DNA from: Candidatus Woesearchaeota archaeon
Lineage (GTDB): Archaea; Nanobdellota; Nanobdellia; Woesearchaeales; GW2011-AR9
Length of the DNA: 64,000 nucleotides
NCBI GenBank assembly: GCA_018696595.1
Contig: JABHQW010000003.1
Location: forward strand, 247,757 to 311,756
Direction: 5' to 3'
Of the stretch, positions 30,274 to 54,532 are shown in pieces. The translations under genes and the position numbers were made by a program. The number at the start of each line of letters is the position of its first letter. Positions within the stretch are counted from its first letter, which is position 1. A model generated the notes under the pieces. The model saw nothing but the letters and a program-made list of their open reading frames with translations, did not search any database and was not told the origin of the DNA.

Positions 30274-30411
30274 GCCCCTGTGGCCTAGCGGTATGGCGTT
30301 GCATTGGTAAATCTTAACTTAGTTTTCGTTAAGTTCAAAGATGCAGAGATCCCGAGTTCAATTTCCGTAAGGGAGTTACAAACCCTTCGTTTGAAAGTCT
30401 CGGCAGGGGCT
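30274..30411 (+). tRNA. tRNA-Thr(GGT) with two introns: 37/38 (30310-30340, 31 nt) and 59/60 (30363-30397, 35 nt)
   Basis: Acceptor stem GCCCCTG/CAGGGGC+T; anticodon stem TTGCA/TGCAG with loop TTGGTA|A; T stem CCGAG/CTCGG; BHB cores TTGG/TCAA and TTCA/TGAA; T-run terminator follows. Confidence 0.9.
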
Positions 30412-30456
30412 CTCTTTTTTTCAATAAACTTTAAAAATAAAACCAACTTCTAAGCA

Positions 30457-30589
30457 TTGCTTATCTCATTAGGTATAGCTTAGCCCCTTTGTGGGCACTT
30501 TGCTTTCCAGTTACCCTTTACAGACCTAGTGCTGTATTTCGGGCCCGGGAGGATACCTTTTACAACAGCAACCCTTTTGAGATAAGCAA
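30457..30589. ncRNA. Unidentified structured RNA (about 133 nt)
   Basis: GC-rich island closed by a perfect 12-bp stem TTGCTTATCTCA/TGAGATAAGCAA and an inner stem AGGTAT/ATACCT, plus GCCC/GGGC, GCACT/AGTGC and TACAG/CTGTA complementarities. TTTAAAAA at 30430 is about 30 bp upstream on +. Confidence 0.6.
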
Positions 30590-30602
30590 CTTAATTCTCA
30601 AC

Positions 30603-30707
30603 AGAAGTAAGTAATATGTCTACTTTGCCAATGGAGGCACATGGCACACTAATTAAAAAATTTAACAGGTGCCATAATCGTGCCGTGCAAGTTGATATAT
30701 TACTTCT
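30603..30707 (+). ncRNA. Repeated bulged-hairpin motif, copy A
   Basis: AGAAGTAA/TTACTTCT outer stem; core CAATGGA-GGCAC-AT...AT-AATC-GTGCC-GTGC. Related to copy B at 37095. Confidence 0.55.
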
Positions 30708-30750
30708 AAACAAAAGAAATTCTTATATAACAAACAACTAAACAAATTCC

Positions 30751-31674
30751 ATGCTAAATCAAATATCACAAGAAATTAAATCCATGATTAACAGTTTCTC
30801 TGCAGAAGATAATATAGTTTTCAATAACAAAGTCATCAGAATAAACAAAGATAATTTCCAAGAGATAGTCCTAAATGAAAACAAAACACTAGCTTTCATC
30901 GATGGTGGACAAGCAGAGATAATCTCAACTGGAAACTTCTGCCTCTCTTTCATCAGAATAGCAGCTGTTTTCTTTCAAAACAATAAAAAAATCAACCAAA
31001 TTAAGAAAGAATTCTATTTGTTTACTAAATCTAAATACTTAAACGAAGATTTATACTATGAATCAAAGATATTTGGAAACAAAATAATCAATGAAGAAGA
31101 TTTATTAATCTCTTCTAATGATTCCAGTATTAAAACAGGATCAGAACGAGCACCAATTTCTAAAATAACAAACATGGCTAGAAGATTTGCAGAATTATCT
31201 TTAGCAAAAGAAATCCAAGCAGACCACATTATCTTAGATGGTACTTTAGAACCAACTTTTAAGAATGAAGAAAAATATATTCCCAATAATGCTTCAGCCC
31301 TAGCAAAATCATCATCTCTATTCACAACATCAGGAAATTCGCCAGTAATTCTCTTAAATAAAATAGGATTAAGTAATTGTTGGAGTTATTTCTTAGAGAA
31401 TAAAACTTATTTTGTAAAATTGAATCAGAAAGCCAAACATGTCTTCCGATTTGAAGGTAATAGAGAAGCTCTCCCCCATTTAGTTAGTAATTCTAAAGAT
31501 GCTTTGTTCCTTGGTTATCCGTATGGATTAATCTTTGTGGATCAGATAGCTAGAGTTTCAAATTCTGAAAAGAATTCTTTGAAAATGAATTTCTTGTTGA
31601 GAAAAGATAATCAGGAAATTGCTGAGTATTTGTCTACGAGTAACGCCCATGAGATATTGGATAATATTTCTTAA
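30751..31674 (+). CDS. nurA: NurA-family DNA double-strand break repair nuclease
   Basis: AFIDGG, LDGTL, GYPYGL..VDQIARVS...HEILD. Confidence 0.8.
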   Translation: MLNQISQEIKSMINSFSAEDNIVFNNKVIRINKDNFQEIVLNENKTLAFIDGGQAEIISTGNFCLSFIRIAAVFFQNNKKINQIKKEFYLFTKSKYLNEDLYYESKIFGNKIINEEDLLISSNDSSIKTGSERAPISKITNMARRFAELSLAKEIQADHIILDGTLEPTFKNEEKYIPNNASALAKSSSLFTTSGNSPVILLNKIGLSNCWSYFLENKTYFVKLNQKAKHVFRFEGNREALPHLVSNSKDALFLGYPYGLIFVDQIARVSNSEKNSLKMNFLLRKDNQEIAEYLSTSNAHEILDNIS

Positions 31675-31729
31675 TGTAATTACTACTTACCAGTAAGATT
31701 TATAAAAACGTCCTCTTCTAAACGTATTA

Positions 31730-32617
31730 ATGACTTATAAATCCTATTTCAATCAATTAGCAGCAAGAGAACAAATTGAACCATTAAAAGAAGCAATCGA
31801 AATAACAATTGATTTAAGTTACGCAAGTAGTGTTCTTTTCCAACAGTATCCAATAGACAAACCCTTTGAGGAACTAATAGTCTATCAAGTCTTAGATGAA
31901 CTTGCCGATCTTTCTGAACAACATGAGTCAGCAGAAGGTTTAGCAAAATTAATTTGGTATCCAGCAAAAGTCATTTGTGCTGTTATGGACCATAAAATAC
32001 TACATAAAGAAGAAGGCCAGTACATTAAAGAAGCAACCGAATTAGCACTTGGCATTTACAATGGAGAAGCCACAAGAGAAGAAATTCTTGCTTTAAAAGA
32101 TAAATTCATGAGTGATGAAAAAAATAAAGTGGGTTTTTCAAGATTAGATATTTACGGTAAAAAAATTGCTGATCAAAGGTCTTGCAAAGCTATGGACCCA
32201 AAGTACAGTGAAAAGGCAGTAAAAAGTTTAACTGAAACTGTTAACGGGGAAGATATTTTATTCATTGCGTTAGGTAATGGGGGAATTGCCCCAGGTTTAG
32301 ATGTATTCCTGCGTTATTGCAACCAGAATGAAACAGATTCTACATTTTATCCGGTTCGTTTTTCCTCACATAAAAGAGCAGACCAAACACCCCAGCTCAA
32401 TGATTGGGAAGCAAAATATCTTCAAGAAGTAAGAGGAGATAAAAAAGTAGTAATATTTGATGAAGACACATCAAGCGGTTTAACTTTGAAAAGAAGTCAC
32501 GAATTCTTCTGTCCTAGTTTTGTTTCAGATAAAGACATTATTCTAATGACAAATGAAGAAGGAACTCTTGAAATAGATGACCTTTGGTATAATCAAATAA
32601 GAAAGAAATCAGCTTAA
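31730..32617 (+). CDS. Protein with C-terminal phosphoribosyltransferase-like domain
   Basis: IALGNGG and VVIFDEDTSSGLTL (PRPP-binding-loop-like); helical N-terminal half. Confidence 0.6.
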   Translation: MTYKSYFNQLAAREQIEPLKEAIEITIDLSYASSVLFQQYPIDKPFEELIVYQVLDELADLSEQHESAEGLAKLIWYPAKVICAVMDHKILHKEEGQYIKEATELALGIYNGEATREEILALKDKFMSDEKNKVGFSRLDIYGKKIADQRSCKAMDPKYSEKAVKSLTETVNGEDILFIALGNGGIAPGLDVFLRYCNQNETDSTFYPVRFSSHKRADQTPQLNDWEAKYLQEVRGDKKVVIFDEDTSSGLTLKRSHEFFCPSFVSDKDIILMTNEEGTLEIDDLWYNQIRKKSA

Positions 32618-32701
32618 TTATACTCTACAACAGCATAAACTTTATAATAGATTAACTTAAAGCTAACATATTAAAAATTTTTAAAAAGCAGGTGATGTTA
32701 A

Positions 32702-33478
32702 ATGAGAAGTATTTGTGTTATTAATCATAAAGGTGGAGTAGGAAAAACTACTACTGCCGTAAGTTTAGCTTCTGGATTGTCCAGAAATGATAAAAATGTT
32801 CTACTAGTGGATTTAGACCCGCAAAGTAATGTTAGTGTTTCACTAAAAGTAGATGCCCCATATAATTTATATGATGCTTTACAAGGAAATATTCCATTAA
32901 AAAGGTGTATTACAAATCTGGCTAAAAATCTTGACGTTTTGGCTTCTAAAGAAACTTTAGTAAAAGCAGAATATTTCTTAGCTAATAAGCTAGGATCAAA
33001 AATGCTTCTAAGAGATTTGTTAAATACCCTAGAACATGATTATGATTATATTATCATTGATTGTCCACCATCATTAGGAATATTAAATCAGAATGTGTTG
33101 GCTTTCTGTAAAGAAGCGTTTGTTCCAACATCTACTGATTTCTTAGGATTAGATGCTTTGAAGAAAATGCAGATCATTGTTGAAAAGATTAACTCTAACT
33201 ATAACCACAATATCAAGATAACTAAAGTTGTTCCAACATTCTTTGACAGAAGAACAAAGATTTGTAAAAATACTTTAATAGAAATGGAAAGAATGTTTAA
33301 TGGTGTTGTTGCTGACCCAATTAGAACTAATTCTAAATTAAGAGAAGCACCAATGCATGGTAAATCTATCTTTAATTATGCTAGATCTAGTAATGGAGCT
33401 AAAGATTATGAAAAATTGGTAGATGGCGTCTTGCAAATGGGTTCTATTAGGGTTACTGAAGAAACTATTATGGCTTAG
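32702..33478 (+). CDS. ParA/Soj-family ATPase
   Basis: NHKGGVGKTTT, LVDLDPQSN, IIDCPPSLG, LREAPMHG. Confidence 0.92.
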   Translation: MRSICVINHKGGVGKTTTAVSLASGLSRNDKNVLLVDLDPQSNVSVSLKVDAPYNLYDALQGNIPLKRCITNLAKNLDVLASKETLVKAEYFLANKLGSKMLLRDLLNTLEHDYDYIIIDCPPSLGILNQNVLAFCKEAFVPTSTDFLGLDALKKMQIIVEKINSNYNHNIKITKVVPTFFDRRTKICKNTLIEMERMFNGVVADPIRTNSKLREAPMHGKSIFNYARSSNGAKDYEKLVDGVLQMGSIRVTEETIMA

Positions 33479-33501
33479 TTCTTTTTTATTATTATTTTTC
33501 T

Positions 33502-34197
33502 TTATTTTTTTAAATATCCCTTCCTTTTTCCTTCTTCTAATCGTTCAATAGAATATCTTAACATCGTTCGAGGCATTTCAGCATAATGTTGATCCAAGAA
33601 TCCAGTTAAAATTTTTTCATCACGTTTCCCAATCTCACGTAACATCCAACCAACTGCTTTGTGAATCAAATCGTGCTTATCATTAAGTAATATCTCAGAA
33701 ATCTTCAAAGAATCTTTGAAATCTCCTAAGCGAATGAAAGCAAATGTTGCTAAAACAGAAATGCGCCGTTCCCACAATGAAGAGGATTTAACCAATTTAT
33801 ACAAAATGCTTCGATCATTGTCAACCAAATAAGCACCAACTGTTTTGGGAATAGTTACATCAACCAAATCCCAATTGTTAATATAGGCAGTATTCTTTAG
33901 AAAAAATTCATAAATCTCTTTTCTAGAATCAGTATCTTTCTCATATTTGTAAACCAACATCACCAAAGCACACATTCTAAATTCATGATATTTGCTTTTA
34001 ACTAACTCTTGAACAAAAGATAAAGTAATTTCCTTAAAGTATTTCTTAGCAATAACTCTAATTTGAGGCATAGTCAAACCTAAAAAAACGTCCCCTTCAC
34101 CATACTCCCCAGGCCCAGTCTTAAAGAATCCCTGGGAATGTTTAGCTCTTACAGGATCAGACGATTCATACAATTCCATAATTATTTGTTTCAACAT
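33502..34197 (-). CDS. DNA alkylation repair protein (AlkD family)
   Basis: FFKTGPGEYGEGDVFLG, NNWDLVD, WERRIS, DLIHKAVGWMLREIGKR. Confidence 0.9.
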   Translation of the reverse strand: MLKQIIMELYESSDPVRAKHSQGFFKTGPGEYGEGDVFLGLTMPQIRVIAKKYFKEITLSFVQELVKSKYHEFRMCALVMLVYKYEKDTDSRKEIYEFFLKNTAYINNWDLVDVTIPKTVGAYLVDNDRSILYKLVKSSSLWERRISVLATFAFIRLGDFKDSLKISEILLNDKHDLIHKAVGWMLREIGKRDEKILTGFLDQHYAEMPRTMLRYSIERLEEGKRKGYLKK

Positions 34198-34241
34198 ACA
34201 ATTACAAATATTTAAAAACATAAAAACATTTCCTTTTCAGT

Positions 34242-34808
34242 ATGTCTTTCCTAAACTTCCTAAAAAAAGAGCGTTTAATTTGGCACAGAAGGTTCATTCC
34301 CAGTTTAATTGCAGGCATTGCAGTTGGAATTATTACATTTTTCTTTGAAATGACCGCTTCAAATATAGTTATGTTTGCTTCTTTAGGTGCAAGTGCAGCA
34401 ATAATCACCCATAAACAGATTCATAAATTAAATATTCTAAGAACAGTTATCTTTTCTTACCTAATTTCTTTGATTGTTAGCGGAGTTGTTATATACTTGA
34501 TCCATCATTATTCCTTATCTTTTTCAATTGCTGCCTTGATTGCAGTATCATTAGCAACATTATTTATGTATTTGGGAGATGTTTTTCATCCGCCAGCAAT
34601 ATCTGCAGCTTTATCTTTTGTATTGTTAGATGGTGGATTTTGGGAAACAATTGTAATTTTCTTTTCTGTAATTGTTCTGTTAATCATTACTAAAATATTA
34701 ACTTATATTTTTTATTACGAACATTTAGAAATGCACAAGTTCAAGATGGAATTTAAGAAATTAGAACGGGAAGAAAAGAAGAAATGGAAAAGAATGTTTA
34801 AGAAATAG
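34242..34808 (+). CDS. HPP family membrane protein
   Basis: FASLGASA and FHPPA motifs; 4-5 TM helices. Confidence 0.85.
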   Translation: MSFLNFLKKERLIWHRRFIPSLIAGIAVGIITFFFEMTASNIVMFASLGASAAIITHKQIHKLNILRTVIFSYLISLIVSGVVIYLIHHYSLSFSIAALIAVSLATLFMYLGDVFHPPAISAALSFVLLDGGFWETIVIFFSVIVLLIITKILTYIFYYEHLEMHKFKMEFKKLEREEKKKWKRMFKK

Positions 34809-34981
34809 AATTCTAACATATTAAAAAAATAAAAAAAAAGAAATCTTGCCCATAAGATGATCCTTACAGGGGTGGTGTAAGAGAAATAATTTAAGGGCAA
34901 GATATATGAAAATGAGACACGCAACACTTTGCATGCCAACAACTACACCTCTTTTTCCCAGATTAAGGGAATACTTGTTCC

Positions 34982-36046
34982 TTAAACCAACTCGATTCCT
35001 AACTCTTTACTCAAAGTTTGTGCTCTTGTCTCAGATCTCTTTTGATCAACTTTACCTAAAATCCAAGGACTGTTAACTCCGGTAATGATTGTCATTACTG
35101 TTAGTTTTCCTTTCATGTTGTCATCTACTCTTGCTCCCCAGATTACATTAGCATCATCATCTAAAGATTCAGTTACTAATTCTCCAATCCGAGATACATC
35201 ATCCAAAGTCATGTCCGGTCCACCAGTAACATGAATCAAAGCTCCTGTAGCTCCTTCATAGCTAATATCTAGTAAAGGATTACTCAAAGCACCTTTTACA
35301 GCTTCATCAACTCTGTTATTAGTATCGGAAGAACCCACACCAATAGCTGCTACACCACCATTACTCATGATTGCTTTTACGTCAGCATAGTCTAAGTTAA
35401 CTAAACTTGGTACAGCAATAGTTTCAACAATTCCTTTAATCATAGTTGAAATTAACTCATTTGCAACAGAGAATGCTTGTTGAATTGGTAAATTACCAGC
35501 AATTTGTACTAATCTGTTGTTATCAATTACAATTACAGTATCACAAACTTGTCTTAACTGTTGTAATCCAAACTCAGCTTTATCACATCTTGCTCTTTCA
35601 ATGTTGAAAGGCATTGTTACAGTTCCGATTACAATTGCTCCAGTATCTTTAGCAACTTGTGCTACTACAGGTGAAGCTCCAGTTCCCGTTCCGCCACCCA
35701 TTCCTGCGCAAACAAAAACCATGTCAGAAGTTTTTAAAGCATCCTTAACAACAGTCATAGATTCCTGAGCTGCTTCTGCTCCTCTACTTGGGAATCCACC
35801 ACAGCCTAAACCACGAGTGCAATCTTTTCCAATTAAAAACTTTCGATCTGCTCCTGTAATGTTAAGATGCTGATGATCAGTATTAGTTGCAATAATCTCA
35901 GCTCCCTTTATTCCTTTCTTGTATAGCCAGCCAACCATATTGTTACCAGCTCCGCCAACGCCAATAACCTTAATATTAGCTTGACTCATGTTCTCAAAAT
36001 CGTGCTCTGGCGCGTTGTTCAGAGCGTTTTCCACGATAAAATCCAT
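34982..36046 (-). CDS. ftsZ: Cell division protein FtsZ
   Basis: IKVIGVGGAGNN, GMGGGTGTGASP tubulin signature, NLDYADV; RBS GAGGTG. Confidence 0.98.
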   Translation of the reverse strand: MDFIVENALNNAPEHDFENMSQANIKVIGVGGAGNNMVGWLYKKGIKGAEIIATNTDHQHLNITGADRKFLIGKDCTRGLGCGGFPSRGAEAAQESMTVVKDALKTSDMVFVCAGMGGGTGTGASPVVAQVAKDTGAIVIGTVTMPFNIERARCDKAEFGLQQLRQVCDTVIVIDNNRLVQIAGNLPIQQAFSVANELISTMIKGIVETIAVPSLVNLDYADVKAIMSNGGVAAIGVGSSDTNNRVDEAVKGALSNPLLDISYEGATGALIHVTGGPDMTLDDVSRIGELVTESLDDDANVIWGARVDDNMKGKLTVMTIITGVNSPWILGKVDQKRSETRAQTLSKELGIELV

Positions 36047-36091
36047 TTTTACACCACCTCAAATTTTTCCACCCTCAAGTGTGTTTTTTTT

Positions 36092-36117
36092 TGGAATATA
36101 TATATATATATACTCCA
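36092..36117. repeat. (TA)8 microsatellite inside the palindrome TGGAA-(TA)8-CTCCA in the ftsZ promoter/leader
   Basis: Seen directly, about 25-30 bp downstream of the minus-strand TTTATAAT box. Confidence 0.7.
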
Positions 36118-36343
36118 GCACACAAAAGATTATAAATGTGTTATACTTTTCTACTACTAGAATTAACCAAATTCGAAACCTATAACCAAAACCTAATTTA
36201 AACTGATAGAATTAACTTATAATTTTATCCAATACGTTTTTTCAAAGGTAACCAGCCTTTAAAACACCCAAACCTATTTTCTAGTAAAGTGCTCCCCCTA
36301 TATAAAGATTTCGCTTCTCAAATATTTAAGAAAATAATTGCAT

Positions 36344-37012
36344 TTAACGCTCTAAATTAAGTTTCTCTTTAACTTTATCGACGACAGAACTACTAACTTT
36401 TTGTAACGAAACTTTTGTGGCGTTTGCTTTTCTTGCCAGAATTGTAGCAGTATCATTCATATACTTTGCTGGATCCCTTAACCTTAATCTCCAAGAACCA
36501 AAATAAACAACCGTTTCTAAAGGATATTTAGGGGGTTTAGGAGGGACTTCTTTTGGATAACCAATAGCAATGATTGCTTGTGGTCGAACATCAGGAGGAA
36601 TCTTAAACATAGTCTTAAGCGCTTCCTCGTCAAAGCCACCAATCCATCTTGTTCCCAATCCAAGAGACTCGGCTTCTAATAACATATTTTGAATAGCAGC
36701 AGCGCAATTTTGTACAGAATAAAGCCGTTCTCCCCTTAAACCATAGTACCTTTCAGCTTTTTCTGGCTCTCCACAAACAATAATTAAAGTTCCTGCTTGT
36801 ATAATTTCATATTGTTTGTAAGCTGCTTCTGCAACTTGCTGTTTTTGATCAGGATCTGAGACTAAAAGAAACTTCCAGTTCTGTACATTTCCGCAACTAG
36901 GAGCATGTCTACCAGCGTCAATTATACGAGAAATTTTCTCCCAAGAAACATATTTAGGCATAAATGTCTTAATTGTACGTCTATTCTTAATTAAGTCTAA
37001 AATATCACCCAT
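36344..37012 (-). CDS. Nitroreductase family protein
   Basis: RRTIKTF, APSCGNVQNWKF, AAIQNMLLEAESLGLGTRWIGGF, IAIGYP. Confidence 0.92.
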   Translation of the reverse strand: MGDILDLIKNRRTIKTFMPKYVSWEKISRIIDAGRHAPSCGNVQNWKFLLVSDPDQKQQVAEAAYKQYEIIQAGTLIIVCGEPEKAERYYGLRGERLYSVQNCAAAIQNMLLEAESLGLGTRWIGGFDEEALKTMFKIPPDVRPQAIIAIGYPKEVPPKPPKYPLETVVYFGSWRLRLRDPAKYMNDTATILARKANATKVSLQKVSSSVVDKVKEKLNLER

Positions 37013-37094
37013 TTTAAATAAGTAATATCTTAAGGGTATTTATATTTAACGTTTTTTGTTAGAGTTAAAATGGTTAGTAACACCAATTTTAAGA

Positions 37095-37167
37095 CAAAAC
37101 ACCAGCGGCAATGGAGGCGCATAAATTTACAAAGGAAATTTATCACCGCGCCGCGCTCTGGTGTTTG
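37095..37167 (+). ncRNA. Repeated bulged-hairpin motif, copy B
   Basis: CACCAG/CTGGTG outer stem; core CAATGGA-GGCGC-AT...AT-CACC-GCGCC-GCGC, with a compensatory change relative to copy A. Confidence 0.55.
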
Positions 37168-52753: not shown

Positions 52754-54532
52754 TTAATAAATAAATAAACTTTCTGTATCTCCATTAATCTTACGATAGA
52801 AGCTATATCCATATCTAGAACCATAAGTCTTTGCATAACTCCCAAACTTTTTTCTTAGTTCTTCATCTTTTAATAATTTTGTAGGGAATAAGAAAAGATA
52901 AGCAAATGAATAATCTTTCTTCAATACTTGTTCTTTAATTATTGATTCTAAAACTGATAAAAGATGATTTAAATCCGTAGGTTTAATAAAAATATGAAGA
53001 TTGGGGTCATCACCCTCAGAACAATTTAAAATAGAAAGCTTAAGCAAACTTTTAATTTGATTAAGACTAAAAAAACCAGGGAAATTATAAATCTGAATAT
53101 CCAAACATTTATGAATTTTATGTTCTTTTTTACAAATTCCCGACATTGCAGTTAAAAAATTATAAGGTAAGAAATCATAACGAGGACCACAGGTTACACT
53201 CTTAATTGCTACGGGAAATTTGCCAACAAACCACTCTCCTAAGCCAATCATTCTTTTAGAAATTTCTGATTGTAAAATCAACCCCTGTTTACTATTATAA
53301 CCCCCGTGGGGTTTTCGACCATTTCGGTTTATATGTTGAAAATTATCCCCTCTATATGCATGAGATTCCACAAAAGAGATTTCAGCATCATCAAAACTAT
53401 TAACAAATTTATTAAATCCCTCCTCAGCAATTATTTTACTTCCTCCACAGGATTCACTAATTTTTTCTTTATAATATAAAAGTTCATCTTCAATTTTTAC
53501 TTTCTTTAAATGACTTAATAAATCAATTCCAGATAAAAATTTATCAAAAGCCTCTAAAATAGATCCAATATCTTCATAATATTCTTTTTCATGCTTAACA
53601 GCTTCGATGGGGTCATATTTTCTTTTCCAATCTTTTAATCCTTCAAGAACAGGTTTAGAATTAAAATAACCAAAATAAACTACAAACCCTTCTTTATTTT
53701 CAGATAACCTAACGTAAGGGATTATACTTATTGCAAATTCTGCAAAATGAGTAGAGGGTTCTGAGTCGCCTTCCTTAAATAAACCAACGCTTAGTAATAA
53801 CTTTTGTGATTTAGCAGCATGAAGATTTCGCAATACTAACTTTTTCATAACGGTTTTTTGATCTTCTTCTATAATCTTTAATTTGTACTGGTAATAATCT
53901 GAAGTAACAGCACTTTTAATCTCTTTATTCTTTTTGTCAATAAAAGAATTTATTGCATCCATAATCTTATTTTTATTGTCCACAATATACATCCCTGCAA
54001 GTTTTTTGTGAATTGTTTCACGATCTTCCATAAATTCTTTAATATCTAATACATGAATTAAATGTTGTAAAGCAGCATTTAATCCCCTTATTTTTGTCAT
54101 GATTTCCGAGAATTCATCTTTTACAGAATCTTGTTTTAATTTTTTCTTAAATTGACCAAAGTATCTTGAAAAATTCTTAATATAAACATCTTCAAATAGA
54201 ATAACAACTTGTTCTTGTGCTTTTTTTATATCTTGATTCATTTCTGGATAATGTGTTTTAATATCTTCTTCTAACTCTTCTATATATTTAACTTCTTTTT
54301 TTTCTTTCCGATTAATACTAGGGCTCCATCGCCCAATATTTTTAATTGATTGCCCGACAGAATCAGAATCGCCTTTTTCCAAACCGCTTTCAATATTTAA
54401 AAAATAACGATATACCCCTTCAAGAGAATTAAACAAAAGTTGAACTTTTTTTTTAGTTTTTTTGAGCTCAGATTTTAAACCATCAATAGTTCTTTTTTCT
54501 TTTTTAGCAACATATCTTTTTAATTGGATCAT
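52754..54532 (-). CDS. Large protein with N-terminal coiled coil and unknown C-terminal domain
   Basis: About 170-aa heptad region, then an alpha/beta region containing AYRGD and GEWF..KFPVA; RBS GAGGTG. Confidence 0.7.
   Translation of the reverse strand: MIQLKRYVAKKEKRTIDGLKSELKKTKKKVQLLFNSLEGVYRYFLNIESGLEKGDSDSVGQSIKNIGRWSPSINRKEKKEVKYIEELEEDIKTHYPEMNQDIKKAQEQVVILFEDVYIKNFSRYFGQFKKKLKQDSVKDEFSEIMTKIRGLNAALQHLIHVLDIKEFMEDRETIHKKLAGMYIVDNKNKIMDAINSFIDKKNKEIKSAVTSDYYQYKLKIIEEDQKTVMKKLVLRNLHAAKSQKLLLSVGLFKEGDSEPSTHFAEFAISIIPYVRLSENKEGFVVYFGYFNSKPVLEGLKDWKRKYDPIEAVKHEKEYYEDIGSILEAFDKFLSGIDLLSHLKKVKIEDELLYYKEKISESCGGSKIIAEEGFNKFVNSFDDAEISFVESHAYRGDNFQHINRNGRKPHGGYNSKQGLILQSEISKRMIGLGEWFVGKFPVAIKSVTCGPRYDFLPYNFLTAMSGICKKEHKIHKCLDIQIYNFPGFFSLNQIKSLLKLSILNCSEGDDPNLHIFIKPTDLNHLLSVLESIIKEQVLKKDYSFAYLFLFPTKLLKDEELRKKFGSYAKTYGSRYGYSFYRKINGDTESLFIY

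Follow-up and report, generated by a model that had tools for sequence, protein, structure and literature searches.

The window analysed here is a 64,000-nucleotide stretch of contig JABHQW010000003.1 (assembly GCA_018696595.1) from a Candidatus Woesearchaeota archaeon. Reading its letters confirms two intergenic hairpins on the + strand, at positions 30603-30707 (copy 1) and 37095-37167 (copy 2). Downstream of copy 1 lies nurA, confirmed as PF09376 with 35.4 bits, and downstream of copy 2 a 173-aa gene, for which a winged helix-turn-helix (wHTH) match is only sub-threshold and a nucleotidyltransferase (NTase) domain was not confirmed. An earlier note, made from the letters of the window, had described the pair as a two-copy structured RNA motif upstream of + genes (nurA; a wHTH-NTase) and had proposed either a new cis-regulatory or protein-binding RNA or a DNA hairpin forming the ends of a small mobile element; the places of both copies and the nurA assignment hold, and the wHTH-NTase assignment is not confirmed. 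Here we show that hairpins of this family are inserted in intergenic DNA, are gained or lost between members of one genus and often lie between short direct repeats of target sequence.

Results

Both copies are well folded, with RNA folds of -35.4 kcal/mol for copy 1 (z -5.1 versus shuffles) and -26.1 kcal/mol for copy 2 (z -2.9), and relative to shuffles the DNA folds are as good as the RNA folds (z -5.6 and -3.5, respectively). The architecture described in the earlier note, an AAUGGA bulge, a 5-bp helix and a 4-nt bulge, is seen in each. On the 5' side an outer stem closing in G-C/C-G is followed by an unpaired C-AAUGGA, which faces only an unpaired GU on the 3' strand in copy 1 and a GC instead in copy 2. 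Inward of this bulge is the GGCRC/GYGCC helix of 5 bp, then an inner stem whose first pair is always A-U; the 4-nt bulge lies on the 3' strand. Copy 2 shows slight degeneration: it departs from the consensus at 2 of 21 core positions, one of them the nearly invariant U of the GU. Within the window alone the shared 11-mer is not beyond chance, given that at least two matches occur in 14 of 100 shuffles; the significance of the motif comes from the genome-wide family.

That family was delineated with a covariance model built from an alignment of 18 copies, and regular-expression scans also found many further copies. Counting as strong any model match at E<1e-10, the source genome (G000; 1.19 Mb, 97% complete) holds 22 strong copies (E 1e-10 to 5e-27) and a few weak or variant ones, so that the label ‘two-copy’ does not stand. 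The 22 are scattered over 7 contigs, every one of them intergenic, and the elements are approximately 75-130 bp long with palindromic arms and no open reading frame (ORF). More than 100 further copies are found in relatives. Among other genomes of the same genus, which include G001 and G002, one has 39 copies and another (84% complete) has 0; 15 of 35 other genera of the same family are positive, with 1-17 copies. By the covariance model, the hairpin was found in none of 24 sampled sister families and in 3 of 150 genomes of an order-wide sample, as a single copy each. The model search for further homologs that the earlier note had suggested thus returned a sizeable family. Its remark that no known family was recognised also agrees with Rfam, which gives no match at gathering threshold across the whole window and no overlap with either hairpin core at E<=10; the sole overlap is a chance-level snoRNA (14.1 bits versus a gathering threshold of 85) touching the outer arm of copy 1. 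We found no account of this hairpin element in the literature. Among viral contigs (IMG/VR), the exact core 15-mer has 79 matches, none of which the covariance model and inspection by eye assign to the family.

Conservation and pairing were taken from a model-fitted alignment of 104 copies. The element has three parts: outer arms that vary by sub-family yet always pair, an invariant asymmetric core, and a variable apical hairpin. The core consensus reads G-C/C-G, an unpaired C-AAWNG-A facing an unpaired G-U, the GGCRC/GYGCC helix, an A-U pair and a 4-5-nt 3' bulge. The unpaired core bases C, AA, G, A and GU and the A-U pair are 94-100% conserved, and the sequence of the 3' bulge is variable. 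No change over the 21 core positions is seen in 66 copies, a figure somewhat inflated because the score threshold of the model favours intact cores. Paired cells amount to 94%, compared with 64% in shuffles and 38-50% with the partners slid, and both-side changes occur at 24 of 26 pairs. At the variable pair of the 5-bp helix we count G-C 46 times, A-U 42 times and C-G 11 times, with one single-sided change, and the difference between GGCAC/GTGCC and GGCGC/GCGCC that the earlier note had singled out is a real paired change. Such changes in the 5-bp helix look like true compensation, although repair between the arms of a palindrome could also produce them. Much of the covariation seen in the arms may reflect whole palindromic modules being swapped or nested instead of stepwise compensation, because cores nest and copy 2 shares its inner stem-loop with differently armed copies. 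Stem wobbles are unequal between strands (G·U/U·G 70 versus A·C/C·A 27, distinct contexts, binomial p=1.5e-5). Wobble is thus tolerated on the motif strand only, from which we infer that this strand must fold as a single strand.

Comparison with the same genus documents the insertions. Copy 1 is missing to the base at the orthologous sites of G001 (C71) and G002 (C54), where the flanks are approximately 84% identical, the nurA promoter is kept and so is the structured region upstream. Each of these empty sites holds one copy of the 12-bp sequence that flanks copy 1 as an imperfect direct repeat (Table 1). Likewise, the copy at C6:75307 stands as ATAGAAAATAA-[hairpin]-ATAGAAAGTAA in the source genome, with ATAGAAARTAA duplicated, where G001 has a single ATAGAAAAGAA. 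A composite copy at C3:349849 is not present in G001 or G002, and one orthologous spacer holds different sub-family members in G000 and G002. The copy 2 hairpin is not present in the orthologous spacer of G001; the spacer has diverged and no recognisable flanking repeat is left. Members of the copy 1 sub-family, with arms GTCTRCTTTGCC...GCAAGYTGAC, sit in other genera at sites that are not syntenic, and in G015 and G027 no synteny with the source locus was found. Flanking direct repeats scoring at least 8 accompany 6 of the 22 copies in the source genome, compared with 6.5% of 2000 random controls; they range from 8 to 12 bp, and three are 12-mers, a length reached by no control. In relatives, clean repeats of 8, 11, 13, 17 and 18 bp abut the palindrome. 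On the best reading, copy 1 is a recent insertion between a candidate non-coding RNA (ncRNA)/tRNA-Thr cluster and the nurA promoter, and copy 2 is an older, slightly decayed one. We rejected the hairpins as ends of a 6.5-kb composite element, given that the intervening genes keep their order in G001, which is free of the hairpins there. The mobile half of the earlier note's second proposal is hence borne out and the ‘ends’ are not: each hairpin is itself a complete element.

The elements are modular. The same core is found within longer hairpins whose outer module is on the opposite strand, and it is also carried inside a MITE (miniature inverted-repeat transposable element) with the terminal inverted repeat TGGTCTGTCCAGAAT and a fixed 8-bp target duplication, with the hairpin at its centre (L266, L262, L263 and L265 in G018; L259 in G079). 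Further palindromes are inserted in some copies of this MITE (e.g. L263), which also occurs in another family of the order; a scan of five genomes for an autonomous insertion sequence with the same ends gave only MITE-sized pairs. The inner stem-loop of copy 2 is nearly identical to that of G018 copies with unrelated outer arms. In some copies a mini-hairpin in place of the AAUGG linker makes a three-way junction, as at C4:22676-22745, C6:219357-219436 and C5:71025-71113 of the source genome, with GTATAC as outer arms and CCGCC-GU-GC retained on the 3' side. No ‘empty’ palindromes with the same arms and no core were found in the source genome.

Three further arrangements were seen alongside hairpin copies. 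At about 1067-1640 of L062 (G002:C96), compared with C8:80912-80922 of G000, G002 has an insertion of approximately 575 bp where the site is empty in G000; it consists of a hairpin copy with a TATA-like box and a small ORF on the reverse strand, and looks like a hairpin-associated single-gene cassette. At C2:52954-54032 of G000, two co-oriented copies bracket one 272-aa ORF (53129-53947). At L047 (G002:C45), compared with C8:50269-51374 of G000, a copy lies at the junction of a small inversion in G002.

Of the copies in tandem gene contexts, 12 point the same way as their neighbours and 9 the opposite way, which makes a regulatory RNA borne in an untranslated region unlikely, and no recurrent gene or protein family was found beside the copies. 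Together with the absence of copy 1 upstream of nurA in two genomes with a conserved promoter, this speaks against the cis-regulatory or protein-binding RNA of the earlier note, and on the best reading neither window copy regulates its downstream gene. Within contigs, by contrast with the gene-level count, copies are co-oriented in 39 of 43 cases (p=2e-4). Replication strand was rejected as the cause, given that orientation does not flip across orc1: on C3 of G000, where orc1 lies at 212 kb at the minimum of cumulative GC skew, and on C1 of G014, which also carries orc1, the copies on either side share orientation. As a separate observation, a decayed long-form hairpin (core C-to-T changes and a deletion) lies at C3:210033-210158 of G000, approximately 1 kb upstream of orc1/cdc6 and near that skew minimum, a likely origin mark.

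A mobilising enzyme was sought in the source genome among eight families, and no match was found to Y1_Tnp, RVT_1, DDE_Tnp_1, DDE_Tnp_IS240 (IS6), DDE_Tnp_IS1595, the TnpB zinc-ribbon, rve or Transposase_mut; other enzyme families were not searched. Y1_Tnp (PF01797) was not found in G001 or G002 either. The source genome has no dispersed repeats of at least 200 bp and no multi-copy insertion sequence. Tyrosine recombinases give 4 matches in it and are equally present in genomes without the motif. Among 21 family relatives scanned, RVT_1 is found in 6 of 10 motif-bearing genomes; it was not found in the motif-bearing G004, G012, G016 and G020, and three genomes with a reverse transcriptase lack the motif. 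Across the family, motif presence shows no convincing correlation with Y1_Tnp, RVT_1, tyrosine recombinases or DDE families. In 256 Nanobdellota proteomes, strict transposase matches are reported to be of the RAYT type only (preprint 10.64898/2026.05.13.725050).

Discussion

The hairpins are probably trans-mobilised palindromic elements of the MITE/REP (repetitive extragenic palindrome) type, belonging to one family of Woesearchaeales-type DPANN archaea. They would be moved in trans by an enzyme outside the common transposases, with the invariant core as a cis-acting recognition site. The core is probably recognised on the motif strand folded as a single strand, as single-stranded DNA (ssDNA) or, less likely, as RNA, because wobble pairs are tolerated only on that strand. 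Several points weigh against this interpretation. The eight enzyme families searched gave no mobilising enzyme in the source genome, and the lack of long dispersed repeats there points the same way. Only about one copy in three has flanking repeats that can be recognised, and a repeat length varying from 8 to 18 bp is not expected from a single DDE transposase. The arrangement is that of a classical MITE reversed, with an invariant centre between variable ends (outer arms). A functional RNA would likewise be consistent with the high core conservation and the excess of G·U pairs, and arm-to-arm repair or module swapping can keep pairing in palindromic DNA, so that covariation does not decide between DNA and RNA. 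Finally, the idea of a link between single-strandedness and replication is weakened by the constant orientation across the orc1-marked origin in two genomes.

Hairpin-folding MITEs such as Correia/NEMIS of Neisseria, ERIC/IRU, RUP and the Sulfolobus SM-type are among the closest parallels. They too are small, non-coding, intergenic, multi-copy and patchy between close relatives, with inverted-repeat arms, flanking target duplications, nesting and mobilisation in trans, the last of which is presumed for the hairpins. As in MITEs, presence/absence polymorphism comes with target-site duplication. The hairpin family differs in that its arms are free to vary around an invariant asymmetric centre, its repeats span 8-18 bp, its wobbles prefer one strand, and the analysis turned up neither a parent insertion sequence nor a transposase with matching ends. 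A duplication of fixed length occurs only in the carrier MITE (TGGTCTGTCCAGAAT); for the hairpins themselves we found neither that nor conserved terminal inverted repeats matching a parent insertion sequence, nor, in the eight families searched, a trans-acting transposase. The GTAG/CGTC-tagged palindromes of the REP/REPIN-RAYT system (PMC3733652) are likewise extragenic imperfect palindromes in tens of copies that pair or nest into longer hairpins, are probably folded as single strands and depend on an enzyme (a Y1 HUH transposase) encoded elsewhere in the genome. However, the hairpin consensus has no GTAG/CGTC tag, G000 and G002 have no Y1 transposase, Y1_Tnp does not correlate with the motif family-wide, and the hairpins have target duplications where REPs are without them. 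Membership of REP/REPIN-RAYT was rejected for want of the tag and of PF01797 in G000, G001 and G002.

Integron attC sites, archaeal ones included (PMC9668308), resemble the hairpins in that the fold is conserved and the sequence variable, that unpaired or extrahelical bases make one strand unlike the other, and that neighbouring sites are co-oriented. Unlike them, the hairpin family has no R/L boxes, cassette arrays or adjacent IntI, and the hairpin is inserted alone with a target duplication; attC membership was rejected because the consensus lacks the boxes, the copies are dispersed, and the recombinases are non-adjacent and uncorrelated. The archaeal bulge-helix-bulge (BHB) splicing motif and mobile tRNA introns resemble the core in the succession of outer helix, 5'-strand bulge, short central helix, 3'-strand bulge and inner helix. 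The BHB geometry is 3/4/3 as against 7 nt / 5 bp / 4-5 nt in the hairpin, on which ground a splicing substrate was rejected, and the copies are intergenic and not in tRNA or rRNA genes.

Known RNA motifs were rejected as well. An L7Ae-binding kink-turn (K-turn), with its 3-nt bulge, tandem sheared G·A/A·G pairs and A at position 1n, does not fit the bulge-adjacent pairs G·U then A·G, a U at position 1n in 94% of copies and a bulge of 5-7 nt. An H/ACA guide RNA, which has a variable pocket that pairs with rRNA, a K-turn or K-loop and an ACA box about 14 nt 3' of that pocket, does not fit a ‘pocket’ that is invariant in more than 100 copies, with no K-turn and no conserved sequence 3' of the stems. 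C/D RNA and the 11-nt tetraloop receptor (a CCUAAG/UAUGG look-alike) fail on sequence or topology, and no Rfam family, including twister, pistol, hatchet, hammerhead, H/ACA and C/D, comes at or near gathering. A small ORF from the AUG in AAUGGAGG is not conserved, with AAAGGA/AAUUGA variants lacking the AUG, and a Shine-Dalgarno mimic (GGAGG) is not consistently followed by a start codon. On these grounds the family stands apart from the classical MITE in the strict sense and from REP/RAYT, attC, K-turn, H/ACA and BHB.

The elements could be read in other ways. It seems unlikely that they are a new kind of hairpin mobile element whose invariant core, folded on one strand as ssDNA or RNA, is the substrate of machinery unlike any known transposase or reverse transcriptase, leaving target duplications of variable length and preferring insertion into other hairpins. 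Such machinery could be a host tyrosine recombinase or nuclease in new use, or a small catalytic RNA core with the conserved G-U junction; if true, this would also explain why, in several MITE-like families of these DPANN genomes, the folded centres are better kept than the ends. A host-encoded structured ncRNA family, cis-regulatory or protein-binding and acting on or with neighbouring genes, would account for the strong structural conservation with paired changes, the invariant unpaired nucleotides, the one-strand G·U excess and the position of many copies 12-35 nt past a stop codon or upstream of a promoter, and with no Rfam match it would be new. We nevertheless regard it as very improbable: orthologous sites in the same genus lack copies though the neighbouring promoters are kept, orientation relative to neighbours is random (12:9) with no common neighbour gene, a single genus spans counts of 0 to 39 copies, target duplications flank copies, the inner core of nested copies lies on the opposite strand, and an invariant loop cannot be a guide pocket.

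Two other routes of mobility compete with trans-mobilisation of the MITE/REP type. Flanking repeats of variable length (8-18 bp), non-palindromic A/T-rich 3' tails or apparent 5' truncation in L102, L051, L035 and L058, the tolerance of G·U on one strand and the RVT_1 matches in 6 of the 10 motif-bearing relatives would suit an RNA-mediated retroelement resembling a short interspersed nuclear element (SINE), in which a reverse transcriptase would recognise the hairpin RNA by its core and copy it back into AT-rich DNA at nicks. That is hard to credit when the source genome, with its 22 copies, has no RVT_1 match, nor do G004, G012, G016 and G020, when the motif is not in three genomes with a reverse transcriptase, and when the tails are inconsistent, no internal promoter is evident and the palindromes are near-perfect to the element ends, as in DNA transposons. 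Just as poorly placed is an attC-like, structure-specific recombination site for a tyrosine recombinase, folded on one DNA strand and serving the insertion, inversion and exchange of small cassettes, to which we give very little weight. The variable sequence over a conserved hairpin, the extrahelical bases and strand asymmetry, the 39 of 43 copies co-oriented along contigs, the 4 tyrosine recombinase matches as the only recombinases found in the source genome, and the G002 copies at an inversion breakpoint and beside a hairpin+promoter+ORF insertion empty in G000 argue for it; against it, there are no R''/R' boxes (RYYYAAC/GTTRRRY) or arrays beside an integrase, the inserted unit is the hairpin alone at the sites examined, flanking repeats differ from site to site, unlike att cores, and tyrosine recombinases are equally present whether or not a genome has the motif.

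The genomes of DPANN archaea are tiny and hardly any transposases can be recognised in them, yet 22 inserted copies are found here and up to 39 in a same-genus genome. The invariant centre with variable ends, the duplications of variable length, the one-strand wobble, the contig-wide co-orientation and the lack of an enzyme among those sought suggest that current annotation overlooks a route of mobilisation or a single-strand function under selection. In a mobile palindrome, covariation by itself is no evidence for an RNA gene, and searches for new ncRNAs in DPANN genomes should begin by masking such elements.

Features of the window

Table 1 Parts of the two hairpin copies, in window positions.
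Feature	Position	Strand	Basis
Copy 1, complete inserted element (97 nt), TAAGTAATATGTCTAC...GTTGATATATTACT, long imperfect palindrome around the core	30608..30704	+	Covariance-model match of 50.7 bits; empty orthologous sites; fold z
Copy 1, left flanking direct repeat TCTCAACAGAAG	30596..30607	+	Equals right repeat at 10/12 positions
Copy 1, right flanking direct repeat TCTAAACAAAAG, just upstream of the nurA TATA region	30705..30716	+	Alignment with empty sites
Copy 1, core 5' side: GC (pairs with GC 30687-30688), C, AATGGA unpaired, GGCAC (5-bp helix)	30627..30640	+	Column conservation of 94-99% over the 104 copies
Copy 1, core 3' side: AATC bulge, GTGCC (5-bp helix), GT unpaired, GC	30676..30688	+	Sequence, fold, 104-copy alignment
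Copy 2, hairpin CAAAACACCAG-CGGC-AATGGA-GGCGC-[ATAAATTT..AAATTTAT]-CACC-GCGCC-GC-GC-T-CTGGTGTTTG	37095..37167	+	Covariance-model match of 56.3 bits
Copy 2, core 5' side: AATGGA bulge and GGCGC helix strand	37110..37120	+	Sequence, fold
Copy 2, core 3' side: CACC bulge, GCGCC strand of the helix, GC instead of GU, GC	37144..37156	+	Sequence, fold, alignment

Upstream of copy 1, a tRNA-Thr(GGU)-like gene lies at 30274-30418 (+), with two introns (one in the anticodon loop, one in the T-loop) and a T7 run at its end; it was missed by ARAGORN and scores 18.6 bits with the Rfam tRNA model, compared with a gathering threshold of 29. Between this gene and copy 1, at 30455-30595, is a single-copy, strongly structured region of approximately 133 nt (z -3.4) with no Rfam match, an ncRNA candidate that is, by eye, approximately 90% identical in both same-genus genomes, above the neighbouring coding sequence.

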